Assembly: GCA_964596525.1 (NCBI GenBank) | Contig: CAZQUL010000001.1 | Span: 1,015,723 to 1,079,722 of the forward strand | DNA: 64,000 bases | Direction of reading: 5' to 3' | Source of the DNA: an uncultured Gammaproteobacteria bacterium | GTDB taxonomy: Bacteria; Patescibacteriota; Patescibacteriia; Magasanikbacterales; GWA2-37-8 | Part shown: piece by piece, positions 1,173 to 8,749 of the stretch | How positions within the stretch are numbered: position 1 is the first letter of the stretch | Layout of the letters: each line of letters opens with the position of its first letter | The notes under the pieces: generated by a model | Told to the model about the DNA's origin: nothing | Seen by the model: the letters and a program-made list of their open reading frames with translations, nothing else | Database searches by the model: none | Position numbers and translations under genes: made by a program

Positions 1173-2324
1173 CTACCGGTTGAAGCGGCTGTCGTCTTCG
1201 TCGCCCCAGTCAGCCCTGTTCTGGGTGTCGGGGTCATTCTTGGGGCGGTGGTTGCGCTGACCCTTCTCCTCGAACTGCTTGGGCGCGCGCGGCGGACGGC
1301 GGCTGTTGTCGGTCGGGCCCTGATCGCGCCGGTTGTCCCGGTCATCGCGGCGCCGCTCCCGGTTGTCGGGCTGCGGCTCGCGCTCGGGGCGATCCCGGCG
1401 GAAGTCGCGCCGATCGTCACGTGGCTGGCTCTGGTGCGAGGGTGGCTCGCGGCGCGGCTCGGGTGCGCTGACGTTGAGCTCCGGCGGATTGTCGAGGTAG
1501 TCCTGGAGACTCTTGAGAAGCTCGGCGAGCCCTTGGTAGAAGTCCTTCTGAGCTGCTTCGGCTTGGTATACCGCCTCCTCTCGGTAGCCGTCGATTTGCT
1601 TTCTGAACTGCTCCCGGCTGATGAAGCAGGTGTGGTCAACGAGCCGTTGGGTGAGAATCACCTCACCGGCGGCCATAACCGCGTTCAGGTTGTAGAACAC
1701 GATTTCGTATAGCGTTACGCCCGGCATCCCGCTCTCCGTGTTGCCTGCGAGCTCCCGCTTCCTTCCCTTGATGAGGGTGAGCTGGGTCTTGCCGTTCTCG
1801 TCGAGCGGTACGGTGTAGCGCTTGATACGTCCGTCCCACTGTCCGGGCTTGATCAGGTACTGCTGTTCGATCCGGCGGAAGTTGGGCAGGCAGAAGATCT
1901 GGGCCATGACCTCGCCCTCTTCGGTGCGGAAGGCCTGCGAGAGGCTCGACACCACCACGGGGAACTGCCCGTTGTGGGTGATATCGTTCGGGATCTTGAA
2001 GGTTGCGACGAAGTTGCCGTCACCGGAACCGCTCTGGAGCGGGTCCTTGAACTGGAACTCCTGGTAGTCGCGCGTGGCAAAGGCCAGGCCTCCTCCTACG
2101 CCCCTGATCTTCTTCTCGGTCTCGCGGTCTTCGAGGCCTGCGATCGCGTGGATCACGGCCTGCTGCAACAGGGGCTTGGGCGCCTTCTTCTGCTCCGTGC
2201 TCTGCGACTGATTCTTCTCGTTCGTCATGGCGATCTCCTTGTATCTCTCGGTGTCCGTGGGGTAGAGCGGCTGCGCTGAAACGTTCAGTGCGGCCAGGTG
2301 AAATCGTCCGTCGGATTGTCCCAA
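1173..2324 (-). CDS. hypothetical protein with Arg/Asp/Glu-rich low-complexity C-terminal tail (true start possibly the internal Met at MTNEKNQ)
   Basis: 383-aa ORF in a sharply GC-rich (about 65%) segment flanked by approximately 52% GC genes; C-terminal approximately 90 aa are RD/RE repeats (RDDRRDFRRDRPEREPQPDNRERRRDDRDNRRDQ); the opposite-strand ORFs here are GC-rich shadows. Confidence 0.5.
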   Translation of the reverse strand: MGQSDGRFHLAALNVSAQPLYPTDTERYKEIAMTNEKNQSQSTEQKKAPKPLLQQAVIHAIAGLEDRETEKKIRGVGGGLAFATRDYQEFQFKDPLQSGSGDGNFVATFKIPNDITHNGQFPVVVSSLSQAFRTEEGEVMAQIFCLPNFRRIEQQYLIKPGQWDGRIKRYTVPLDENGKTQLTLIKGRKRELAGNTESGMPGVTLYEIVFYNLNAVMAAGEVILTQRLVDHTCFISREQFRKQIDGYREEAVYQAEAAQKDFYQGLAELLKSLQDYLDNPPELNVSAPEPRREPPSHQSQPRDDRRDFRRDRPEREPQPDNRERRRDDRDNRRDQGPTDNSRRPPRAPKQFEEKGQRNHRPKNDPDTQNRADWGDEDDSRFNR

Positions 2325-2491
2325 CGGTCCATTTCACGCGGCCACACGTTGTCAAAAGAGCGTCGCAATTCCGTCAGGAGCCTTTCTCCGTCTCCTAACA
2401 GAATAACCACGTAGTATACCTATTTTTGATCACTCTGTCAAGACACGGTTCATTACTGTAAAATAACCATTTTTAAGCCAAAAAATCCCTT

Positions 2492-2514
2492 TTGCATAGT
2501 TTATGTGGTATACT
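2492..2514 (+). promoter_or_regulatory. candidate sigma-70 promoter with extended -10 (TTGCAT ... TGgTATACT) upstream of the ECF sigma gene
   Basis: TGnTATACT extended -10 at 2506-2514 in an AT-rich intergenic region about 50 nt upstream of the 2564 start; the spacer to TTGCAT is short (11 nt), so the -35 is doubtful. Confidence 0.25.
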
Positions 2515-2563
2515 ATTTTAATTATCCTGGAGTAATATCTCCCTTTTTGTTTCGTTTTTAGGT

Positions 2564-3136
2564 ATGAACGACCGTACCGCGTTTGCCGACGAACACGCCC
2601 TGGTAGAACGGGCCAAAAACGATGAACAGGCTTTTCGCGAGCTCTATGAACGGTACTTCAATGAAGTATACGGTTTTATAGCTAAGCGCGTGGGCGGCCG
2701 TGAAACCGCGGAAGACCTTACTTCGGAGCTGTTCATCAAAATTTTTACTAAACTGTCGAGTTACGAACCGCGGGATTGTTCATTTCGGGCGTGGCTCTAT
2801 CGCGTGGCGCATAACATTCTCATCGATCATTACCGCAAAGCCAGCGTACGCCGCGAAACCACGGTTGAAGAATTCCCTGAAATCCGCGATGAAAACCAGG
2901 ATGTAAACGAAGAAATCATGCGCCGTCACGATGCGGCAACGGTTCGTTCTGTTCTCGATCAACTCCCCGAACGCTACGGCCAGGTGCTGGAACTCAAGTT
3001 TTTTGCCGAGATGGACCATGCTGAAATTGCAGGTGTAATGAATGTAACAGTAAATAACGTGGGAGTGATGGTATTCAGGGCACTGCGCGCCTTTGCCCGT
3101 TACTATGAACGCTATGTTTCTCAAGAAAAAAAGTAA
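2564..3136 (+). CDS. RNA polymerase sigma factor, ECF (sigma-24/sigma-70 group 4) family
   Basis: Region 2 (FRELYERYFNEVYGFIAKR ... WLYRVAHNILIDHYRK) and region 4 HTH (ERYGQVLELKFFAEMDHAEIAGVMNVTVNNVGVMVFRALRAF); 190 aa, typical ECF size. Confidence 0.85.
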   Translation: MNDRTAFADEHALVERAKNDEQAFRELYERYFNEVYGFIAKRVGGRETAEDLTSELFIKIFTKLSSYEPRDCSFRAWLYRVAHNILIDHYRKASVRRETTVEEFPEIRDENQDVNEEIMRRHDAATVRSVLDQLPERYGQVLELKFFAEMDHAEIAGVMNVTVNNVGVMVFRALRAFARYYERYVSQEKK

Positions 3137-6100
3137 ACAACTCGAAGATGCCATTCTCGGCCGTGGAGCGTGTAATGATCCGAAGATTGATGCGTTAGCT
3201 GAGGTAGGAGCGCGTATTAAACGCGCCGCTAACTCCGCTTCGTCCGAACCGCGGGCCGAATTCCAGAACGAACTTTTCGTTCGGATTTCTGCTCTGCGCC
3301 GCGAGGCCCCCGCATCTATGTCCAAGGCTTCCTTCCTCTCTCGCTTTTCAAGCGTCATCCTTTCGTGGCGTTTTGCTCCGGCGATCGCCGCTCTTCTTAT
3401 TGTTGCTATCGTTGCTTCTACCTTCACTTGGTGGCGCGGCGGTAATTCTAGTAACGGACTTTTCATCTCCGCGGCGTACGCGCAGGATAATTTTTCGGTC
3501 ACCTCGACGAACGGTGATAGTTTGGGTGTACCCACGTCTACCGCATTCGTCATCAGGAGTAAGCAAGCGCTCAGTCGCGCGGCCGTAGAACGCGCTGTAC
3601 AGCTCGTTCCAGCCACGCCTTTCGCGGTAGAAAAAATATCCGATCACGAGTTTAAAATCATTCCCGAAAAAGATTTGGCCGACCGGGCACTCTACCGCGT
3701 GCTCATCAATAGCCAGTACGTCAACGAGGCCGGTATCAGCGTGCAGCGTCCGTTCTCCTTTGCTTTCCAGACTAAACAATCGTTTTTCGTAAAAGGAACA
3801 CTTCCCGGCGATCGCTCGGTAAATGTGCCTGAAACTACCGGCATCGAGTTTACTTTTTCGCACGCCGGCGTGAAAAATCCCGAGCAGTTCATTACGTTTT
3901 CGCCGGAGATCAAAGGTACTTTTTCTGTCTGGGGATCAAAAGTGACCTTTGTGCCCACGTCGACTCTTAAGAAAAACACCTTGTATACCGTTACTATCAG
4001 CAAAAATTTGCCGGTCGAAGGAACGGTTGAGCGGTTATCGCAGGATTATACGTTCCAGTTTGAAACCGCGCTCGATGACCGGAGTGTCAACGCTCAGCGT
4101 TCGGTGCCGTACTTTGAGCGTACATTTGCCGAATTATCCGAAACCGGCGAGCAGGGAGTACAGGTATATCATTATTTTGAACAGATTCCCGGGGCCCCGT
4201 CTTCGGTTAAGCCGGCCTTGCCGCTCACGGTGTACCGCTTCGGCGATGTTAGCCAGTTCATTACCGCGCTTAAAAATTACGAAGAATCAAAACCGTGGTC
4301 ATATGTCGCGGCCAATGCATTCACGGTTCCTACCTCCACCCTTACGAACGTGTACTCCTTTGAAGGAACGCTTATTACCCGCCAGAATAATGATGTCATT
4401 TTGTTCCCCAAAAAATTGACCGCCGGTTTTTATCTGGTACAGGGCGAAAAAGCCGGTGTTAATCGGACGCTCTTTCTTGCGGTAACGCCGCTTGCCGCGC
4501 ATACCATCACGACTGCCAATCGCTCGCTCGTGTGGCTTAACAGCCTCGTTACGGCTAAACCGGTTACTGGAGCACGGATCCGTTTGGGTGCTACCGAGCT
4601 TGGTTCAACCAACGCTCAGGGTGTAGCTGAGTTTACACTTCCAACGTCTACTGTTGAAACCAACTCTTCTACGTTCCCGTATGCGGTAGTGGAAGCCGGT
4701 GGGCAGCAAACCGTGGTAAAACTTACCTCTGTCGACATGGCAGAGAGCACTCCCAATGCCACCTGGTGGAAATATCTTTACACTGACCGCGCGCTCTATC
4801 AACGTACTGATACGATGCGCACGTGGGGTTTTGTCCGGCCGCGCGCGAGCGCTTCAACCGCAGCGCCTTCGTCTATCGTCTTGAAAATCAACGGCGGCGT
4901 GGATTTTTATGGTAATTCGTATGCCGCGGTCGAGCAAACTGTTTCCGTGAATGCGCAAGGCTTCTTTTCTGCCGACCTGCCGCTTAAGGATATGCCGGTT
5001 GGTTTCTACTGGCTCGAAGGAGCGATTAACGATCAGGTCGTAATGTCGCGCAGTTTCCAGATACAACGCTACGTTAAGCCTGCCTATTCGCTTACCGTTA
5101 CTACCGACAAGCAAGCTCTTTTCGTTGATGAAACCCTCAAAGTCAATATTAAAGGCACGTTCTTTGATGGCACTCCGGCCGCTAACATTCCGCTCACATA
5201 TTCGTTCTTTGGGAATGTTGGTGATGTAAAACTTTCTCCGGCGGGCGAAGCTCACCTTGAACTCACCATGCCATACCAGAAGTTCGTTAATGGTGTTGAA
5301 AGAGGGTACTTTCCGTCGACGTATGCGCTTGAAATTGCATCCAAGGCCCCCGAAGAGAGCGATGTCTCGTTCTCTACCGATATTCGCGTTTTCGCGCAGC
5401 GTATTAACGTAAATACGTCCATTGAAGCTGCTAGCAGCAGCACAGCTCTTCTTAACGCGGAAGCATACAGAACTGATCTAACCGCGATCAACAATCGTAC
5501 CGAGCCGTTCTACGGTTCGTATAAAGGTCAGCCGGCGGGTAATTTCAGCGCCGAAGCTGTGATTACCGAAATTACGTATGTTCAGGTTCCGCGTCTCGAG
5601 TATGACCCTATCCTTAAACAGAACGTAACCCGTTACACGAGCCGCCAGGACACCAAGGAAGTGGCGCGCTTGCCGTTGCGCTTTAATGCCCAAGGCAAAG
5701 CCGAAGCTCGTTTTCCGGTAGTGCCGGGCAAAACGTATACGTCGCTTATTAAAGTTACTGACGAAAAGGGTTTTTCGGTGGAATCGAACGGATACTTTTA
5801 CGCATCGCGGCCGGGTTTAGATGATACTTCCTTTGAGGATCGTTATATTGGCCTGCAGTTTGCACCGGACCATAACGACACCACCTACCGTCGCGGCGAA
5901 ACCGTAAACGTATATGCACAGAATAAGGCCATGGCCGCCGCGTCCAACCGAGCGTACCTCTATTACCGATTGCAGAACGGTTTGCGTGATTACACCATCT
6001 CGAATACCTCCACCTACAACTTCGTGTTTTCGAATGAGCACGTACCGAATGTCTATATTAATGCGGTCGGGTTTGATGGACGTGAGTACTATCAGAGTTA

Positions 6101-8747
6101 CCATGAAATAAATGCGCAGCTCGATACGGCTGAAGAAGAATTAACGTTGACCGCTCGTACGCCGAGTACTACGTACGGCCCGGGCGACACTGTTCAGGTT
6201 GAAGTGGAAGTAAAAAACAAGAACGGCCAACCGGTTGCTTCTGGTATTAACCTCAACATTGTTGACGAAGCTTTTTATAAGCTAAGTGATGAGATTGCAG
6301 ATCCGCTTTCGGCGTTATACGTAAGCATCCCGTCCGGTTTGTATACCGTGGAATCGTCGCATCCGTACGCGGATTTGGCTAATATGAAAGCAGGTGGTGC
6401 CGAAGGCGGCGGGTGTTTCGTCGCGGGCACGCTCATCTTGATGGCTGATGGCACGCAAAAACCGATCGAGGAGATTAAAGTCGGTGATAAAATCAAGACG
6501 TTTGCCGGGCCGCTTGACCGTCGTTTGGTGACCGCTGAAGTGGAAAAAACATTCAGCCATACGGTTACGAAGTATCTTGTCATCAATGACCGTCTGTACG
6601 TAACGCCGGAACACCGCATGCTCGTCAACGGCGGTTGGCAGATGATCGGTGAAGCCGAAGTAGGGGATACGTTGGTTGATGCCTCGGGTAGTGCCATCGT
6701 TATCACCTCGATTGACCGCAAACAAGCCCTGACGCCGGTGTTTAACTTTACGGTGCGCGACTACCATACCTATATCGCCAATGGCGTGTATGTCCACAAC
6801 GACAAAGGCGCGCTGCGCAGTAACTTTACCGATACGGCCTTGTTCGTTTCGGGTGAAACTGATGCGAGCGGTAAAGCTGTGTTGTCCTTCAAACTCCCAG
6901 ACAACCTTACGGCCTGGCGCATTACCGCACAAGCGATTGATGGCGATGTGCGCGCTGGCGTAACGACTACTCCGGTGTATGTCACGCAATCGTTCTTCGT
7001 CTTGCCGAGCGTTGCGCGCGAGTACGTTCTCCTCGACCGTCCGTTCGTGAGCGTGCGCGGCTTCGGTGATGGATTGGGTGCGGCTTCTACGGTTGCGCTG
7101 AGCGTCGAACACACCGCTTCTTCTTACACTGCGACGGGAACCGTACCTGCTTTTACGCCGTTCTACGCGGCGCTGCCGGACATGAGTGTGGGTACCCATA
7201 AACTTATTTTCCGCGGTACGAGTACGCCCTTTGCCGATGCTGTTGAGCGTTTCGTATCAGTTGTCCCTTCGCGTGTACAAGAACGTGTTGTAGAAGAAAT
7301 CAACCCAACTAACGGGCAGCCGCTTAGATTTGAAACTGACGGCCCGGTAGAGATCGCTATTGTCAGCAAAGAACGTAGTCAGTACTACTACCGCCTCCTT
7401 AACCTTACCAACCCACATTCCGATCGTCTGGATGACCGTTTGGCAGCCGCGGTAGCCGCCGATCTTCAGAAACGACATTTTGGAACTGCAGCTGATTGGC
7501 AGGCGCCGGTCGACTGGTCGCTCTACGAGCAGTCCGGTCTTGCGCTCTTGCCCTACGATTCGGTTAATACCCGTTTGTCAGCTCTTGCAACACCGTTTGC
7601 AGAAGGTCGTTTCGGGATTACGAACCTTAAGGGGTATTTCTACAACCTCGTTAAAGATCCAGCTACGACCCGGGATGATTACTACGCTGCGCTTGCCGGT
7701 TTGGCGACGTTCAACGAGCCGGTTCTACTCCTCTTCCGCGAAGCTTTGACGACCGACGATTTCCTCACGCCGCGCATTAAGCTGCACCGCGCATGGGCAG
7801 CCGCTGCCCTGGGCGAAACTGAAGTGGCGCGCACTCTGGCTAGAGAATTTGTCGCTGATCACGTGACAAAGAGCGCTCTTGGTTTTGAACCGTCATATGA
7901 GACAACTGAAGAAGAGAAAGCTGAGGATATGGCCTTACTTGCCGTCGTTGCTATGGACCTGAAGCTGCCGGAAAGCGAAGACTTTATGGCGGCTGCGGAG
8001 CGTTTCGCCACCGATACGCGCATCAGTTTGGAACAGGCCCGTTATTTGGCGAGCGCGGTGGTGCAATCGAGTGCTAATGATGTGCATGTCAATCTTTCCG
8101 TCAACGGCCAGCCACGCTCGTTTGTCATCGGCAAAAATGACGGCGGTCCGGTACTTCTCACGTTGACGCGCGCCCAGGCTGAGTCCATAACGATGGGCAC
8201 AACAACCGGTGCCTTTGCCATGACCGCTTCGTATTCCCGTCCGACGTCGGCGCTCGCGAGCGTTTCCTCGCCACTGCTTAGTCTTAAGCGTGAGTATCGC
8301 GTCAATGGCGTTGTTACTACGTCGTGGAACGTAGGTGACTTAGTGGAGGTGCGATTATATCCTGAGGTCAAAACCGGCGTACCGACTACTTCGTACCAGA
8401 TAACAGATCTCTTGCCGAGCGGTCTCTATGCTGTTGGTCCGTTAGACCAGCCGATCATGTACAATGATTTCAGCGCCAAATCCATCTATAATCCGGGTGG
8501 CGATACATGTCCTAAGATCCTTCCGTATGAACGCGATGGGCAGCGTATTAAGTTCGTATACGGTCACTACGAGCCTTGGATAAAAGTTGTAGGTGAACCG
8601 GCGTGTCCGGATAAGAGAGTAATTTCCTACAGTGCCCGTGCGTTTGCTCCTGGTTCGTACGCCGCAGAACCGGCTCTCATGCAGGCGTTCGAATACTCCG
8701 ATCTCAAGACCTTCTCGGCGCCCGGTACGGTTACTATCGGGAAGTAA
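3093..8747 (+). CDS. giant single-pass membrane protein with anti-sigma-factor-like cytoplasmic N-terminus, extracellular alpha-2-macroglobulin-like (MG-domain, thioester-less TED-like) region and an embedded Hint/BIL domain
   Basis: Overlaps the ECF sigma gene by 44 nt. About 95-aa cytoplasmic N-terminus, then one TM helix (FAPAIAALLIVAIVASTFTWW), then about 1750 aa of beta-rich repeats. A2M-family landmarks: LTAWRITAQAIDGD, resembling the FPETWLW/TTW motif after the bait region, and an alpha-helical TED-like region with SLYEQSG at 7521-7538 where A2M proteins carry the CxEQ thioester. Hint domain at residues 1108-1236. Confidence 0.6.
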   Translation: MPVTMNAMFLKKKSKQLEDAILGRGACNDPKIDALAEVGARIKRAANSASSEPRAEFQNELFVRISALRREAPASMSKASFLSRFSSVILSWRFAPAIAALLIVAIVASTFTWWRGGNSSNGLFISAAYAQDNFSVTSTNGDSLGVPTSTAFVIRSKQALSRAAVERAVQLVPATPFAVEKISDHEFKIIPEKDLADRALYRVLINSQYVNEAGISVQRPFSFAFQTKQSFFVKGTLPGDRSVNVPETTGIEFTFSHAGVKNPEQFITFSPEIKGTFSVWGSKVTFVPTSTLKKNTLYTVTISKNLPVEGTVERLSQDYTFQFETALDDRSVNAQRSVPYFERTFAELSETGEQGVQVYHYFEQIPGAPSSVKPALPLTVYRFGDVSQFITALKNYEESKPWSYVAANAFTVPTSTLTNVYSFEGTLITRQNNDVILFPKKLTAGFYLVQGEKAGVNRTLFLAVTPLAAHTITTANRSLVWLNSLVTAKPVTGARIRLGATELGSTNAQGVAEFTLPTSTVETNSSTFPYAVVEAGGQQTVVKLTSVDMAESTPNATWWKYLYTDRALYQRTDTMRTWGFVRPRASASTAAPSSIVLKINGGVDFYGNSYAAVEQTVSVNAQGFFSADLPLKDMPVGFYWLEGAINDQVVMSRSFQIQRYVKPAYSLTVTTDKQALFVDETLKVNIKGTFFDGTPAANIPLTYSFFGNVGDVKLSPAGEAHLELTMPYQKFVNGVERGYFPSTYALEIASKAPEESDVSFSTDIRVFAQRINVNTSIEAASSSTALLNAEAYRTDLTAINNRTEPFYGSYKGQPAGNFSAEAVITEITYVQVPRLEYDPILKQNVTRYTSRQDTKEVARLPLRFNAQGKAEARFPVVPGKTYTSLIKVTDEKGFSVESNGYFYASRPGLDDTSFEDRYIGLQFAPDHNDTTYRRGETVNVYAQNKAMAAASNRAYLYYRLQNGLRDYTISNTSTYNFVFSNEHVPNVYINAVGFDGREYYQSYHEINAQLDTAEEELTLTARTPSTTYGPGDTVQVEVEVKNKNGQPVASGINLNIVDEAFYKLSDEIADPLSALYVSIPSGLYTVESSHPYADLANMKAGGAEGGGCFVAGTLILMADGTQKPIEEIKVGDKIKTFAGPLDRRLVTAEVEKTFSHTVTKYLVINDRLYVTPEHRMLVNGGWQMIGEAEVGDTLVDASGSAIVITSIDRKQALTPVFNFTVRDYHTYIANGVYVHNDKGALRSNFTDTALFVSGETDASGKAVLSFKLPDNLTAWRITAQAIDGDVRAGVTTTPVYVTQSFFVLPSVAREYVLLDRPFVSVRGFGDGLGAASTVALSVEHTASSYTATGTVPAFTPFYAALPDMSVGTHKLIFRGTSTPFADAVERFVSVVPSRVQERVVEEINPTNGQPLRFETDGPVEIAIVSKERSQYYYRLLNLTNPHSDRLDDRLAAAVAADLQKRHFGTAADWQAPVDWSLYEQSGLALLPYDSVNTRLSALATPFAEGRFGITNLKGYFYNLVKDPATTRDDYYAALAGLATFNEPVLLLFREALTTDDFLTPRIKLHRAWAAAALGETEVARTLAREFVADHVTKSALGFEPSYETTEEEKAEDMALLAVVAMDLKLPESEDFMAAAERFATDTRISLEQARYLASAVVQSSANDVHVNLSVNGQPRSFVIGKNDGGPVLLTLTRAQAESITMGTTTGAFAMTASYSRPTSALASVSSPLLSLKREYRVNGVVTTSWNVGDLVEVRLYPEVKTGVPTTSYQITDLLPSGLYAVGPLDQPIMYNDFSAKSIYNPGGDTCPKILPYERDGQRIKFVYGHYEPWIKVVGEPACPDKRVISYSARAFAPGSYAAEPALMQAFEYSDLKTFSAPGTVTIGK
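6414..6800 (+). other. Hint (Hedgehog/intein) domain, 129 aa, mini-intein/bacterial intein-like (BIL) type, in frame inside the giant protein
   Basis: N-terminal block GGG-CFVAGTLILMADGTQKPIEEIKVGDKI (Cys1, block A), TPEH (block B Thr/His), C-terminal block FNFTVRDYHTYIANGVYVHN ending in His-Asn; the residue after HN is Asp (no Cys/Ser/Thr +1 nucleophile); no homing endonuclease. Confidence 0.75.
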
Positions 8748-8749
8748 GT

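Follow-up and report, generated by a model that had tools for sequence, protein, structure and literature searches.

A giant alpha-2-macroglobulin-like surface protein with an intein-like domain in its bait region as the putative anti-sigma factor of an adjacent ECF sigma factor

Bacterial alpha-2-macroglobulins (A2Ms), such as ECAM/YfhM and Salmonella A2M, consist of an array of macroglobulin (MG) domains, a bait-region domain, MG7, a thioester domain (TED) and a C-terminal beta domain in this order, and they are anchored to the cytoplasmic membrane with the body outside. The GCxEQ thioester is a trait of the reactive A2M subclass and is not required for the fold; the YfaS/MagD class has no CxEQ thioester. 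PBP1c or the genes of the yfaS cluster are the partners of proteobacterial A2Ms. In complement C3, C4 and C5, an anaphylatoxin domain and a processing site occupy the position equivalent to the A2M bait, and scission leads to the active conformation. Extracytoplasmic function (ECF) sigma factors are classically arranged with an anti-sigma factor through overlapping stop and start codons, the latter protein being a single-pass protein with its N-terminus inside (N-in) and a tail of 45-110 residues (PMC8315932). In RsiV, which senses lysozyme (PMC4183432), and RsiP, which senses beta-lactams (PMC8844934), site-1 cleavage by signal peptidase is gated by the ligand. In this study, we analyzed a stretch of 64,000 nucleotides (nt) of contig CAZQUL010000001.1 (hereafter the window), in which the gene of an ECF sigma factor overlaps that of a giant single-pass membrane protein. 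The ectodomain of this protein is related to the A2Ms, and its bait region carries a Hint domain of the bacterial intein-like (BIL) type. We regard it as rather probable that the two genes form an ECF sigma/anti-sigma module, in which the anti-sigma factor is the tail of a giant surface A2M with a BIL Hint domain in its bait, and in which two promoter-like dyads, P1 and P2, provide the output. The host of the module is probably a monoderm, patescibacterial organism of the Candidate Phyla Radiation (CPR).

Compared with the bacterial A2Ms, the giant protein has the same order of domains and the same anchoring to the cytoplasmic membrane, and CxEQ is missing from it as from the YfaS/MagD class. 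In contrast to the lipoprotein signal of the ECAM type, it has an N-terminal transmembrane (TM) helix and a cytoplasmic tail. Its gene neighbors an ECF sigma gene and a Memo-like gene, whereas the ECAM and YfaS types lie in pbpC or yfaS-type operons; neither a lipoprotein signal nor pbpC or yfaS-type neighbors, as in the ECAM/YfhM and YfaS/MagD operons, were found at the giant gene. Unlike the bait of bacterial A2Ms, its bait is a short Gly-rich linker that carries the Hint domain, and the sequence is too divergent for detection from a single sequence. Similar to complement, an extra domain lies at the bait position, and chains of C3 and C5 are among the top structural matches; however, the complement insert is the substrate of an external convertase or furin, whereas the insert of the giant protein is a predicted autocatalytic Hint domain combined with a TED without thioester.

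With RsiV and RsiP, the giant protein shares the single-pass N-in topology, an inner, here putative, sigma-binding tail, an outer sensing domain, adjacent co-transcribed genes and a candidate AxA site. In contrast to their small receptor domains, it has an A2M fold of about 1770 residues. Further differences lie in the tail, which is not detectably class I, in the built-in, predicted self-cleaving domain and in a putative sigma-type promoter inside the coding region. As in the type-A BIL and pretoxin-HINT domains of secreted polymorphic toxins, the Hint domain has Cys1, TxxH and a terminal His-Asn, lacks a nucleophile at position +1 and occupies a variable part of a protein that is secreted or displayed on the surface. 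It differs from the known BILs in its position in an A2M bait loop, a site whose cleavage physiologically triggers the host fold, and in at least 98 distinct sequences it has been passed down together with its host. Collectively, the components are of known kinds (an ECF sigma/anti-sigma pair, a bacterial A2M and a type-A BIL), while their combination is new. In the literature searched, an A2M as anti-sigma ectodomain, a Hint domain in a bait, a promoter within anti-sigma codons and a Memo-like partner were described neither together nor singly.

Downstream of P1, the sigma gene (2564..3136; this and all other features of the locus lie on the plus strand) encodes a sigma-70 family protein of 190 residues. 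It has the composition of ECF group 4, namely sigma2 and sigma4 domains only within about 170-200 residues (Pfam Sigma70_r2, 1.4e-16, residues 27-94; Sigma70_r4_2, 2.3e-13, residues 127-176). With the NCBIfam model sigma70-ECF TIGR02937, the protein reaches 117 bits (cutoff 42.9); among the NCBIfam subfamily models, that of the BldN family is nearest, with a score below its cutoff. The giant gene (3093..8747) is a maximal open reading frame (ORF) of 1884 residues with a TTG start, and its beginning lies over the 3' end of the sigma gene. The first-pass annotation, made from the letters of the window, had drawn both ORFs with these boundaries and had named the first an ECF sigma factor, and the Pfam and NCBIfam matches agree with it. 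The 44-nt overlap that it gave belongs to the maximal ORF only. In the public record, the giant protein starts at ATG 3105 (1880 residues, 32-nt overlap), and, judged from the N-termini of orthologues, ATG 3114 (23-nt overlap) is an equally plausible start, which gives an overlap of 23-44 nt. Residues are numbered on the 1884-residue maximal ORF throughout.

The N-terminal domain of the giant protein, a putative sigma-binding tail of about 85 residues (3105..3356), contains the motifs LEDAIL, CNDP..ALAE and P.AEF..L...I..LRR, a series that is conserved in 25 sigma-linked relatives. The tail is net positive, with 16 Lys and Arg against 9 Asp and Glu. It is followed by a single TM helix (residues ~93-113; 3369..3431) within the hydrophobic segment of residues 85-116, which is the only one whose 19-residue Kyte-Doolittle mean reaches 1.6; the best value elsewhere is 1.27. 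The single-pass topology of anti-sigma type that had been read from the window at first pass is thus borne out.

To describe the pairing of the two genes, 160 non-redundant loci were annotated with purpose-built hidden Markov models, and pairs were counted for the 122 5'-complete genes that have room for an upstream gene. These loci were sampled by similarity, their metagenome half was selected for carrying the Hint domain, and the statistics treat related sequences as independent. A tail was called long when the TM helix starts at residue 50 or later, a threshold picked after seeing the data, in which the separation is stark. An adjacent upstream ECF sigma gene on the same strand is present at 51 of the 59 long-tail genes and at 1 of the 63 others (Fisher 1e-24). 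At most loci, the start of the giant gene either falls 4-44 nt inside the end of the sigma gene or is separated from the sigma stop by less than 31 nt. The gene pair of the window, in which the overlapping downstream gene encodes a single-pass N-in putative anti-sigma factor, is thus kept in relatives. Moreover, at least four unrelated types of tail are coupled to sigma. In particular, the tail of the relative L002/P0005, whose ectodomain belongs to this family, is a genuine zf-HC2 anti-sigma domain (E 4.4e-9, 36.7 bits against a cutoff of 22.2) and also matches the RsrA- and ChrR-type NCBIfam models. Eight long-tail genes have no adjacent sigma gene; one relative (P0004) combines a similar tail motif with UvrC upstream.

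The tail of the window protein itself has no detectable kinship with known anti-sigma domains. In Pfam, 25 tails gave no significant match and the window tail none at E<=5, and a profile search of the PDB found nothing; the best match, the NCBIfam model 'anti-sigma factor' NF052375, is not significant (E 0.027; 14.5 bits, with the cutoff at 100). The HxxxCxxC zinc motif of the class I ASD/ZAS/zf-HC2 domains is missing, and the tail has one Cys only (C27). The tail was therefore rejected as a homologue of a known anti-sigma domain, and the comparison of the first 95 residues with known anti-sigma N-domains, proposed at first pass, gave no significant similarity. The anti-sigma reading made at first pass is supported by the conserved pairing with sigma and by the zf-HC2 domain of L002, and the window N-domain adds no similarity of its own. 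Furthermore, an exhaustive profile search of 1.84 billion representative proteins found the tail on the giant family only, in 35 cluster representatives, the short ones being N-terminal pieces of giant proteins. On this result, we rejected the idea that the tail is a general anti-sigma module of the CPR that also sits on other sensors.

These properties of the tail leave room for an alternative, in which the giant protein is a target of sigma, namely a co-transcribed shield or adhesin whose tail serves anchoring or localisation, and the true anti-sigma factor is elsewhere or absent. A tail without homology to known anti-sigma domains, found on giants only and never on other sensor domains, agrees with this alternative, and P2, described below, marks the giant gene as a likely sigma target. 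In addition, adhesion is the role usually ascribed to large surface proteins in Patescibacteria, and the one patescibacterial paper found that cites an A2M structure does so in a list of adhesion-type domains of such proteins (PMC13059738). However, we consider this alternative quite unlikely, because the tail predicts an adjacent sigma gene almost perfectly, because independent tail types including zf-HC2 stand on the same ectodomain beside sigma, and because the overlapping codons, the N-in single pass and the length of the tail reproduce the classic ECF anti-sigma layout (PMC8315932). The ORF list of the window shows no other ORF, between the two genes or next to them, that could encode an anti-sigma factor. 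Based on gene context, the giant protein is very probably an anti-sigma factor, and its tail probably holds sigma inactive. We infer sigma binding by the window tail from this context, because the N-domain has no significant similarity to known anti-sigma domains.

The ectodomain begins with an N-terminal array of MG beta-sandwiches that ends in a bait-region domain (3789..6284). In this array, Pfam detects Big_5 (residues 233-325, 4.8e-11), bMG3 (464-545, 1.6e-6), MG2 (561-633, 9.8e-6) and A2M_BRD (929-1064, 2.5e-9). The A2M (MG7) domain, which contains FKLPDNLTAWRITAQAIDGD, follows at 6837..7013 (PF00207, 4.1e-11, residues 1249-1307) and is the best-conserved block of the giant family. The post-bait motif LTAWRITAQAIDGD, singled out at first pass, lies inside it at residue 1272. 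Next come a TED-like alpha/alpha domain without thioester (7368..8066) and one or more C-terminal beta-sandwich domains that resemble MG8 and the receptor-binding domain and contain the pair Cys1806/Cys1838 (8067..8744; assigned from the model and its match to 4ziu, which covers ECAM from MG7 to the C-terminus). Beside this domain we note that one Bacillota relative (P0003) ends in a dockerin module and that the locus of L002 has a dockerin-containing neighbor (3754-5118), which suggests attachment to a cellulosome-like scaffold in some lineages.

Structure models were built on alignments of 20-21 sequences. In the AlphaFold2 model of the last 648 residues (pLDDT 84.8, pTM 0.78), a beta-sandwich is followed by a 12-helix alpha/alpha domain and then by beta-sandwiches; the TED-like helices span residues 190-422 of the modeled segment, mostly with pLDDT above 85. 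Its best Foldseek matches are native ECAM (5a42, 4ziu) and Salmonella A2M (4u48), with E values of 1e-23 to 1e-24 and TM-scores of 0.59-0.64, and further matches include complement C3, C5, CD109, A2ML1 and TEP1. Protease-activated ECAM fits the model worse than the native forms do (TM-score 0.38). The Pfam domains, the model and the Foldseek matches all agree with the MG-like modules and the helical TED-like region that had been proposed from the letters, and the structural comparison proposed with them places native ECAM and Salmonella A2M first, with a TED-like domain present. An unrelated beta-sandwich adhesin fold without TED is ruled out by these matches and by the 12-helix region. In contrast to the profile and structure searches, phmmer with the whole giant protein against the PDB found no A2M and returned the Hint domain only. 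Collectively, the ectodomain is a genuine, very divergent protein of the A2M/TEP fold, with the MG array, bait domain, MG7, TED and C-terminal beta domain of the TEP superfamily and without the GCxEQ thioester.

The absence of the thioester was assigned correctly at first pass, at a different place in the sequence. SLYEQSG (residues 1476-1482; 7518-7538) had been taken for a degenerate thioester site; in the alignment with 12 thioester-bearing A2Ms, however, it falls on a downstream Q..DGG(F/W) motif that is present in thioester-bearing A2Ms too, and the assignment was rejected. The YPYGCxEQ column instead corresponds to NPHSDRLDD of the window protein (residues ~1441-1449), in which HSDRLDD (residues 1442-1448; 7416-7436) takes the GCxEQ position; the consensus of the family is YG[DN]RxDQ. 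The giant protein has four Cys residues, none of them in the TED.

A complete Hint domain, which the first reading of the window had not seen, sits after the bait-region domain and before the A2M/MG7 domain. It comprises 129 residues (1108-1236; 6414..6800), from CFVAGT to VYVHN with Asp at position +1, and its junctions read GGG|CFVAGTLILMADG ... YIANGVYVHN|DKG. It is preceded by the residual bait linker (residues 1084-1107; 6342..6413; ...PYADLANMKAGGAEGGG), which ends in Gly-Gly before Cys1 of the Hint domain. In a model of 1005 residues, the sole long disordered stretch is formed by the 23 residues just before Cys1108 (pLDDT 29-47; model residues 205-227), and the Hint domain folds confidently (pLDDT 75-92). 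PT-HINT is the best Pfam model (4e-12), its whole profile being covered. The closest solved sequence is 2LWY, 'bacterial intein-like domain' (1.4e-11, end to end); the Mtu RecA mini-inteins follow at about 2e-6. Hint-less relatives read GAEGGGGG.R.DF.DTALF uninterrupted over the insertion site, so the Hint domain has been inserted cleanly into a bait linker that is short and rich in Gly.

The Hint domain is also present in many of the 80 best relatives found in genomes, and 107 relatives came from a metagenome search whose pattern covers the stretch where the C-terminus of the Hint domain meets the A2M domain. For 98 distinct Hint domains, the median identity is 45%; in them, Cys1-Phe2, TPxH (block B), YHTY (block F) and the terminal HN are conserved at >=90-98%. 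The window domain has the nucleophile Cys1108 and TPEH in block B; Cys1 is present in 104/104 relatives, and Thr and His of block B are each conserved in at least 98%. The residue at position -1 is Gly in 103/104. At position +1 (n=110), Asp occurs 64 times, Gln 23, Glu 16, Asn 3, Ser 2 and Ala 2, whereas Cys and Thr never occur. The Hint domain is more alike among relatives than the 600 flanking host residues (mean identity 46% vs 29%), and the two diverge together (Mantel r 0.69, 0/999 permutations). It thus behaves as an integral, constrained domain, because its divergence tracks that of the host.

Type-A BILs are defined by the lack of a +1 nucleophile, a C-terminal His-Asn and the dominance of cleavage products, with splicing by aminolysis as a possibility (PMC4031507). 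Judged by Cys1 and TxxH, by HN without a +1 nucleophile, by its similarity to BILs and by its position in a variable region of a surface protein, the Hint domain is a type-A BIL with its catalytic residues intact on sequence grounds. A canonical class 1 intein was rejected on account of the +1 Asp (0 Cys, 0 Thr and 2 Ser in 110), the size of 129 residues without an endonuclease and the position in a hypervariable Gly-rich loop. The idea of self-cleavage, which the first-pass annotation had raised in passing, gains support from a BIL-type domain with intact catalytic residues in the bait loop. No paper that pairs a Hint or BIL domain with a macroglobulin was found in the literature searched.

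A neutral or selfish origin of the Hint domain also has to be considered. It could be an intein-like insert that splices itself out by the aminolysis of type-A BILs and restores an ordinary Gly-rich bait, with no role in sensing or in the A2M. Excision in silico gives ...GAEGGG|DKGALRSNFTDTALF, which resembles the Hint-less relatives, and the insertion is clean. In an unbiased genome sample, moreover, the domain is patchy, being present in 19/26 sigma-linked and 9/38 sigma-less genes. Splicing is possible for type-A BILs, but cleavage products are reported to dominate (PMC4031507). Between the thioester-bearing and thioester-less subfamilies, the Hint domains are 43% alike and the flanks 20%, which could reflect transfer; on the other hand, the domain is more constrained than its host and co-diverges with it. 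No homing endonuclease is present in its 129 residues. The +1 residue is D/E/Q/N in 106/110 and never Cys or Thr, which excludes canonical splicing, and the near-invariant Gly at -1 (103/104) points to selection on the reactivity of the N-terminal junction. Finally, the domain lies in a variable loop, whereas inteins typically lie in conserved active-site motifs (PMC7765530). On balance, we find a selfish insert possible but doubtful and prefer a Hint domain that is part of the function of the bait.

The Hint domain occurs in the thioester-less family and also in a thioester-bearing sister group, for example in P0010 with YPYGCVEQ. In this sister family (L005/P0010, L131-L162), the bait contains the Hint domain, the N-terminus is a signal anchor only, and a Memo-like neighbor is often present; P0010 has a C-terminal TM helix. 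Two metagenome loci, L158 (gene 2258-6265) and L164 (gene 3836-9154), combine an upstream ECF sigma gene, a bait Hint domain and an intact CxEQ thioester, so sigma coupling does not need the loss of the thioester. In the Hint-less relatives P0004, P0006, P0007 and P0009, the bait is reduced to the oligo-glycine GAEGGGGGGGR, which is unusual as a bait. Such a bait might conceivably be aimed at Gly-Gly endopeptidases, which is speculation.

An unbiased search for spaced dyads in 51 sigma upstream regions returned TGTAAT-N16-C(G/A)TTAT. It occurs with at most one mismatch in 19/51 regions (0.4% in shuffles) and with at most two in 30/51 (8% in shuffles). The dyad resembles the ECF16 consensus (T/C)GTAAC-N17-CGAA, and ECF sigma factors commonly autoregulate (PMC8315932); its likeness to published ECF promoters is also seen in PMC3420878. 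In the window, P1 (AGTAAT-N16-CGTTTT; 2531..2558) is followed by TAGGT and then by the sigma ATG after 5 nt. Its two mismatches are by themselves at chance level for 64 kb (8 matches against 4.1 expected), while its register of 33 nt from the ATG is typical of the family, and no other intergenic copy in the window has the right position ahead of a gene. For an autoregulatory promoter of the ECF kind, whose -35 element is of AAC type and whose -10 element is of CGT type, the dyad strongly enriched across the family and the window copy, with two mismatches in the conserved register, are candidate elements. Six more dyads with two mismatches lie inside unrelated genes at chance level, and further regulon members in the window were rejected on this account. 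In the window (2531-2566) and in L007, L019, L039, L071, L079, L089, L095, L102, L127 and L142, the -10 element ends 5-6 nt before the sigma ATG, so the sigma mRNA would be leaderless or nearly so in the window clade.

The best copy of the dyad in the window, P2 (TGTAAT-N16-CGTTAG, one mismatch; 3171..3198), lies inside the coding region of the giant protein, over the codons from Cys27-Asn to Ala-Leu. In the window clade, the site is present with at most two mismatches in 21/21 distinct relatives. Its first codon encodes Cys or Arg and is always xGT, Arg being CGT in 10/10. Codon 8 encodes Ala, Ser, Pro or Met and is xCG in 20/21 (19% expected from own usage, P 8e-14). Codon 9 is the Leu codon TTA in 19/21 (23% expected, P 9e-11), although TTA makes up 7% of the Leu codons of the window gene. 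The 16-nt spacer is invariant in length and variable in sequence. Dyads of the P2 type with at most one mismatch occur in 16/54 sigma-linked 5' coding regions, in contrast to 0/540 control windows of the same genes and 0/73 sigma-less genes. P2 is thus kept as a DNA sequence even where codon usage runs against it, and this points to an internal promoter that depends on sigma.

Constraint from the peptide, from mRNA structure or translational coupling near the sigma stop, or from shared ancestry could in principle produce the same pattern without a promoter. P2 occurs in one clade only, so its 21 sequences are not independent, and the start downstream of it has no convincing ribosome-binding site. 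However, the amino acids vary (Cys/Arg; Ala/Ser/Pro/Met) where the nucleotides GT and CG are fixed, the codons TTA, NCG and CGT are rare against each gene's own usage, and the spacer keeps its length with a free sequence, the motif and its spacing being the same as before the sigma genes. Moreover, the N-domains are only ~25% identical, so shared ancestry alone would not keep the synonymous sites of P2. We therefore hold these explanations to be unlikely and continue with P2 as a putative promoter.

A transcript from P2 cannot encode the first ~35 residues of the tail, which leads to a predicted sigma-dependent isoform without the tail. A conserved in-frame ATG, Met76 (3318..3320), is the candidate start of this isoform (MSKASFLSRFSS...); it lies 119 nt past the -10 element of P2 and 18 residues before the TM helix. 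A Met 8-28 residues before the TM helix is found in 22/22 P2 genes and in 9/32 sigma-linked ones that lack P2 (Fisher 3e-8, with clade as a confounder). In most loci, 110-119 nt separate this Met from the -10 element of P2, and it is followed by peptides that look like N-termini (MKK, MSK, MKN). A leaderless start right after P2, in the manner of P1, was rejected, since it occurs in 4/22 genes only. The start codon is accordingly uncertain, with weak Shine-Dalgarno evidence and a leaderless register in those 4/22 genes.

The dyad also appears outside the sigma-linked genes. TGTAAT-N15-17-xGTTAT lies 105-233 nt before the TM-coding segment in 5/65 sigma-less genes, against ~0.7 expected. All five (L020, L028, L053, L060, L082) are of Oscillospiraceae type, and none is found among sigma-less Patescibacteria; a related ECF sigma factor, with its gene at another place, may act on these five. 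The same counts bear on the idea that the N-domain arose by extension of the ORF over an ancestral promoter.

Beyond the membrane, a juxtamembrane motif, AAYA|QDNF (3471..3494), was recognized by its conservation. The pattern AxA|[QK]D[FY], 15-25 residues past the TM helix, is kept in both sigma-linked clades and also in sigma-less relatives, and in the window clade a conserved F(S/G)xFSRL(I/L)I segment precedes it. It could be a candidate signal-peptidase or site-1 site or, equally, the first strand of MG1, and we treat it as a lead.

Based on these observations, the following mechanism is proposed. At rest, the tail would sequester sigma. A breach of the bait, either by protease attack on the 23-residue disordered linker or by the Hint domain itself, would alter the conformation of the A2M body, as in other A2Ms. 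In the second route, an N-S acyl shift at Gly-Cys1108 would form a thioester, and cyclisation of Asn1236 would cause scission at the C-terminal junction. The conformational change would expose the candidate AYA|QD site to site-1 cleavage, and site-2 intramembrane proteolysis would then release sigma. Free sigma would fire P1, giving more sigma and full-length sensor, and P2, giving the signal-anchored A2M isoform from Met76 together with the Memo-like and glycosyltransferase-like proteins encoded downstream. One gene would thus provide both the sensor and a sigma-induced effector. The release of sigma by a foreign protease, as put forward at first pass, is kept as a hypothesis.

Several points weigh against this account, in addition to the unrecognized tail, the long-tail genes without sigma and the chance-level match of P1 described above. 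The AxA motif lies farther from the TM helix, at 15-25 residues, than typical signal-peptidase sites do, and sigma-less relatives have it too. P2 is limited to one clade, the sigma-linked genes of Peribacteria type being without it, and no Shine-Dalgarno sequence clearly serves Met76. Scission by the Hint domain is not itself the site-1 event, because ~1000 residues of the ectodomain stay on the anchor. Finally, the link from bait to membrane is a conjecture, and trapping of proteases by the thioester-less family is a hypothesis.

The ectodomain might also be a passive protease trap or shield rather than a sensor, with sigma freed by a generic cue of envelope stress at the TM or juxtamembrane region. 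Most family members have neither the tail nor sigma, so the primary function of the ectodomain needs no signaling, and bacterial A2Ms are viewed as protective protease traps, with which the ECAM and Salmonella A2M matches are consistent. On the other hand, in known systems the ectodomain of the anti-sigma factor is the sensor, as in RsiV, which binds lysozyme (PMC4183432). In the unbiased genome sample, furthermore, the Hint domain is enriched among sigma-linked genes (73% vs 24%; P 1e-4, confounded by taxonomy). A passive trap therefore appears to us an improbable, though serious, alternative to a sensing ectodomain. A bolder version of the sensing ectodomain, which we offer only tentatively and think somewhat less likely still, unites alarm and response in one gene. 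There, the thioester or scission of the bait Hint domain would trigger or arm the trap without an external protease, the Hint thioester would possibly be the sole reactive acyl group for covalent capture in thioester-less members, and the tail-less copy made from P2 would escape negative feedback.

The Memo-like gene (8750..9697) starts 3 nt after the end of the giant gene and encodes an N-terminal hydrophobic helix (Pfam Memo, 2.5e-13; NCBIfam AmmeMemoRadiSam protein B, 8e-17). Such a gene lies directly downstream in 55/103 thioester-less and 13/25 thioester-bearing relatives, including L003 (6983-8800) and L005 (6265-7146), and the helix is present in 69/72 cases. Because of this adjacency and the helix, the Memo-like protein appears to be a conserved extracytoplasmic or membrane-anchored partner of the A2M lineage, with or without sigma; in the literature searched, no description of a Memo-like gene as an A2M partner was found. 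A DUF6938 or glycosyltransferase-like gene (9688..10902) overlaps it by 10 nt and is possibly the last gene of the operon (Pfam DUF6938, 5e-16; a weak match to NCBIfam diglucosyl-diacylglycerol synthase, 5e-12, is far under the cutoff). In L005, a PMT_2 glycosyltransferase-like gene takes the equivalent position. Just ahead of the sigma promoter region, positions 1001-2000 show a local GC peak (0.63 against ~0.52 elsewhere) with a strong AT skew, which coincides with a 383-residue ORF (1173-2324, minus strand) without a Pfam match.

A genome scan with the MG7 block found at least 584 matching stretches in Patescibacteria, Bacillota, Chloroflexia, Acidobacteriota and others; among the matches listed, the closest relatives belong to Candidatus Uhrbacteria, with 53-56% identity in this block, and the assignment of the host is taken from these relatives. 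As the family is widespread, the system is a common, overlooked one and not a one-off. In the metagenome loci L118 and L119, reading UGA as sense (table 25) lengthens the A2M ORF considerably, which hints at Gracilibacteria- or Absconditabacteria-like organisms.

The locus offers several points of general interest. P2, as a putative promoter, is a testable case of overlapping codes, in which promoter hexamers constrain codons and one ORF would give rise to sensor and effector isoforms. A Hint domain at the place where proteolysis normally fires the conformational change of A2Ms is a natural experiment on the triggering of the trap, and, if the proposal is true, this would be the first BIL whose host protein suggests a mechanistic purpose of cleavage. 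Cultured Bacillota members of the family (Brassicibacter mesophilus, Tepidanaerobacter) allow direct study of the ectodomain and the Memo-like partner. For the ECF field, the giant ectodomains would, if true, form a new and very large class of sensor domains, in a family with many members among the Patescibacteria, a group little understood in its surface biology and in how its genes are regulated. Finally, bacterial A2Ms have been thought of as passive traps, and a family of A2Ms wired to sigma factors would, if true, make them signaling receptors.

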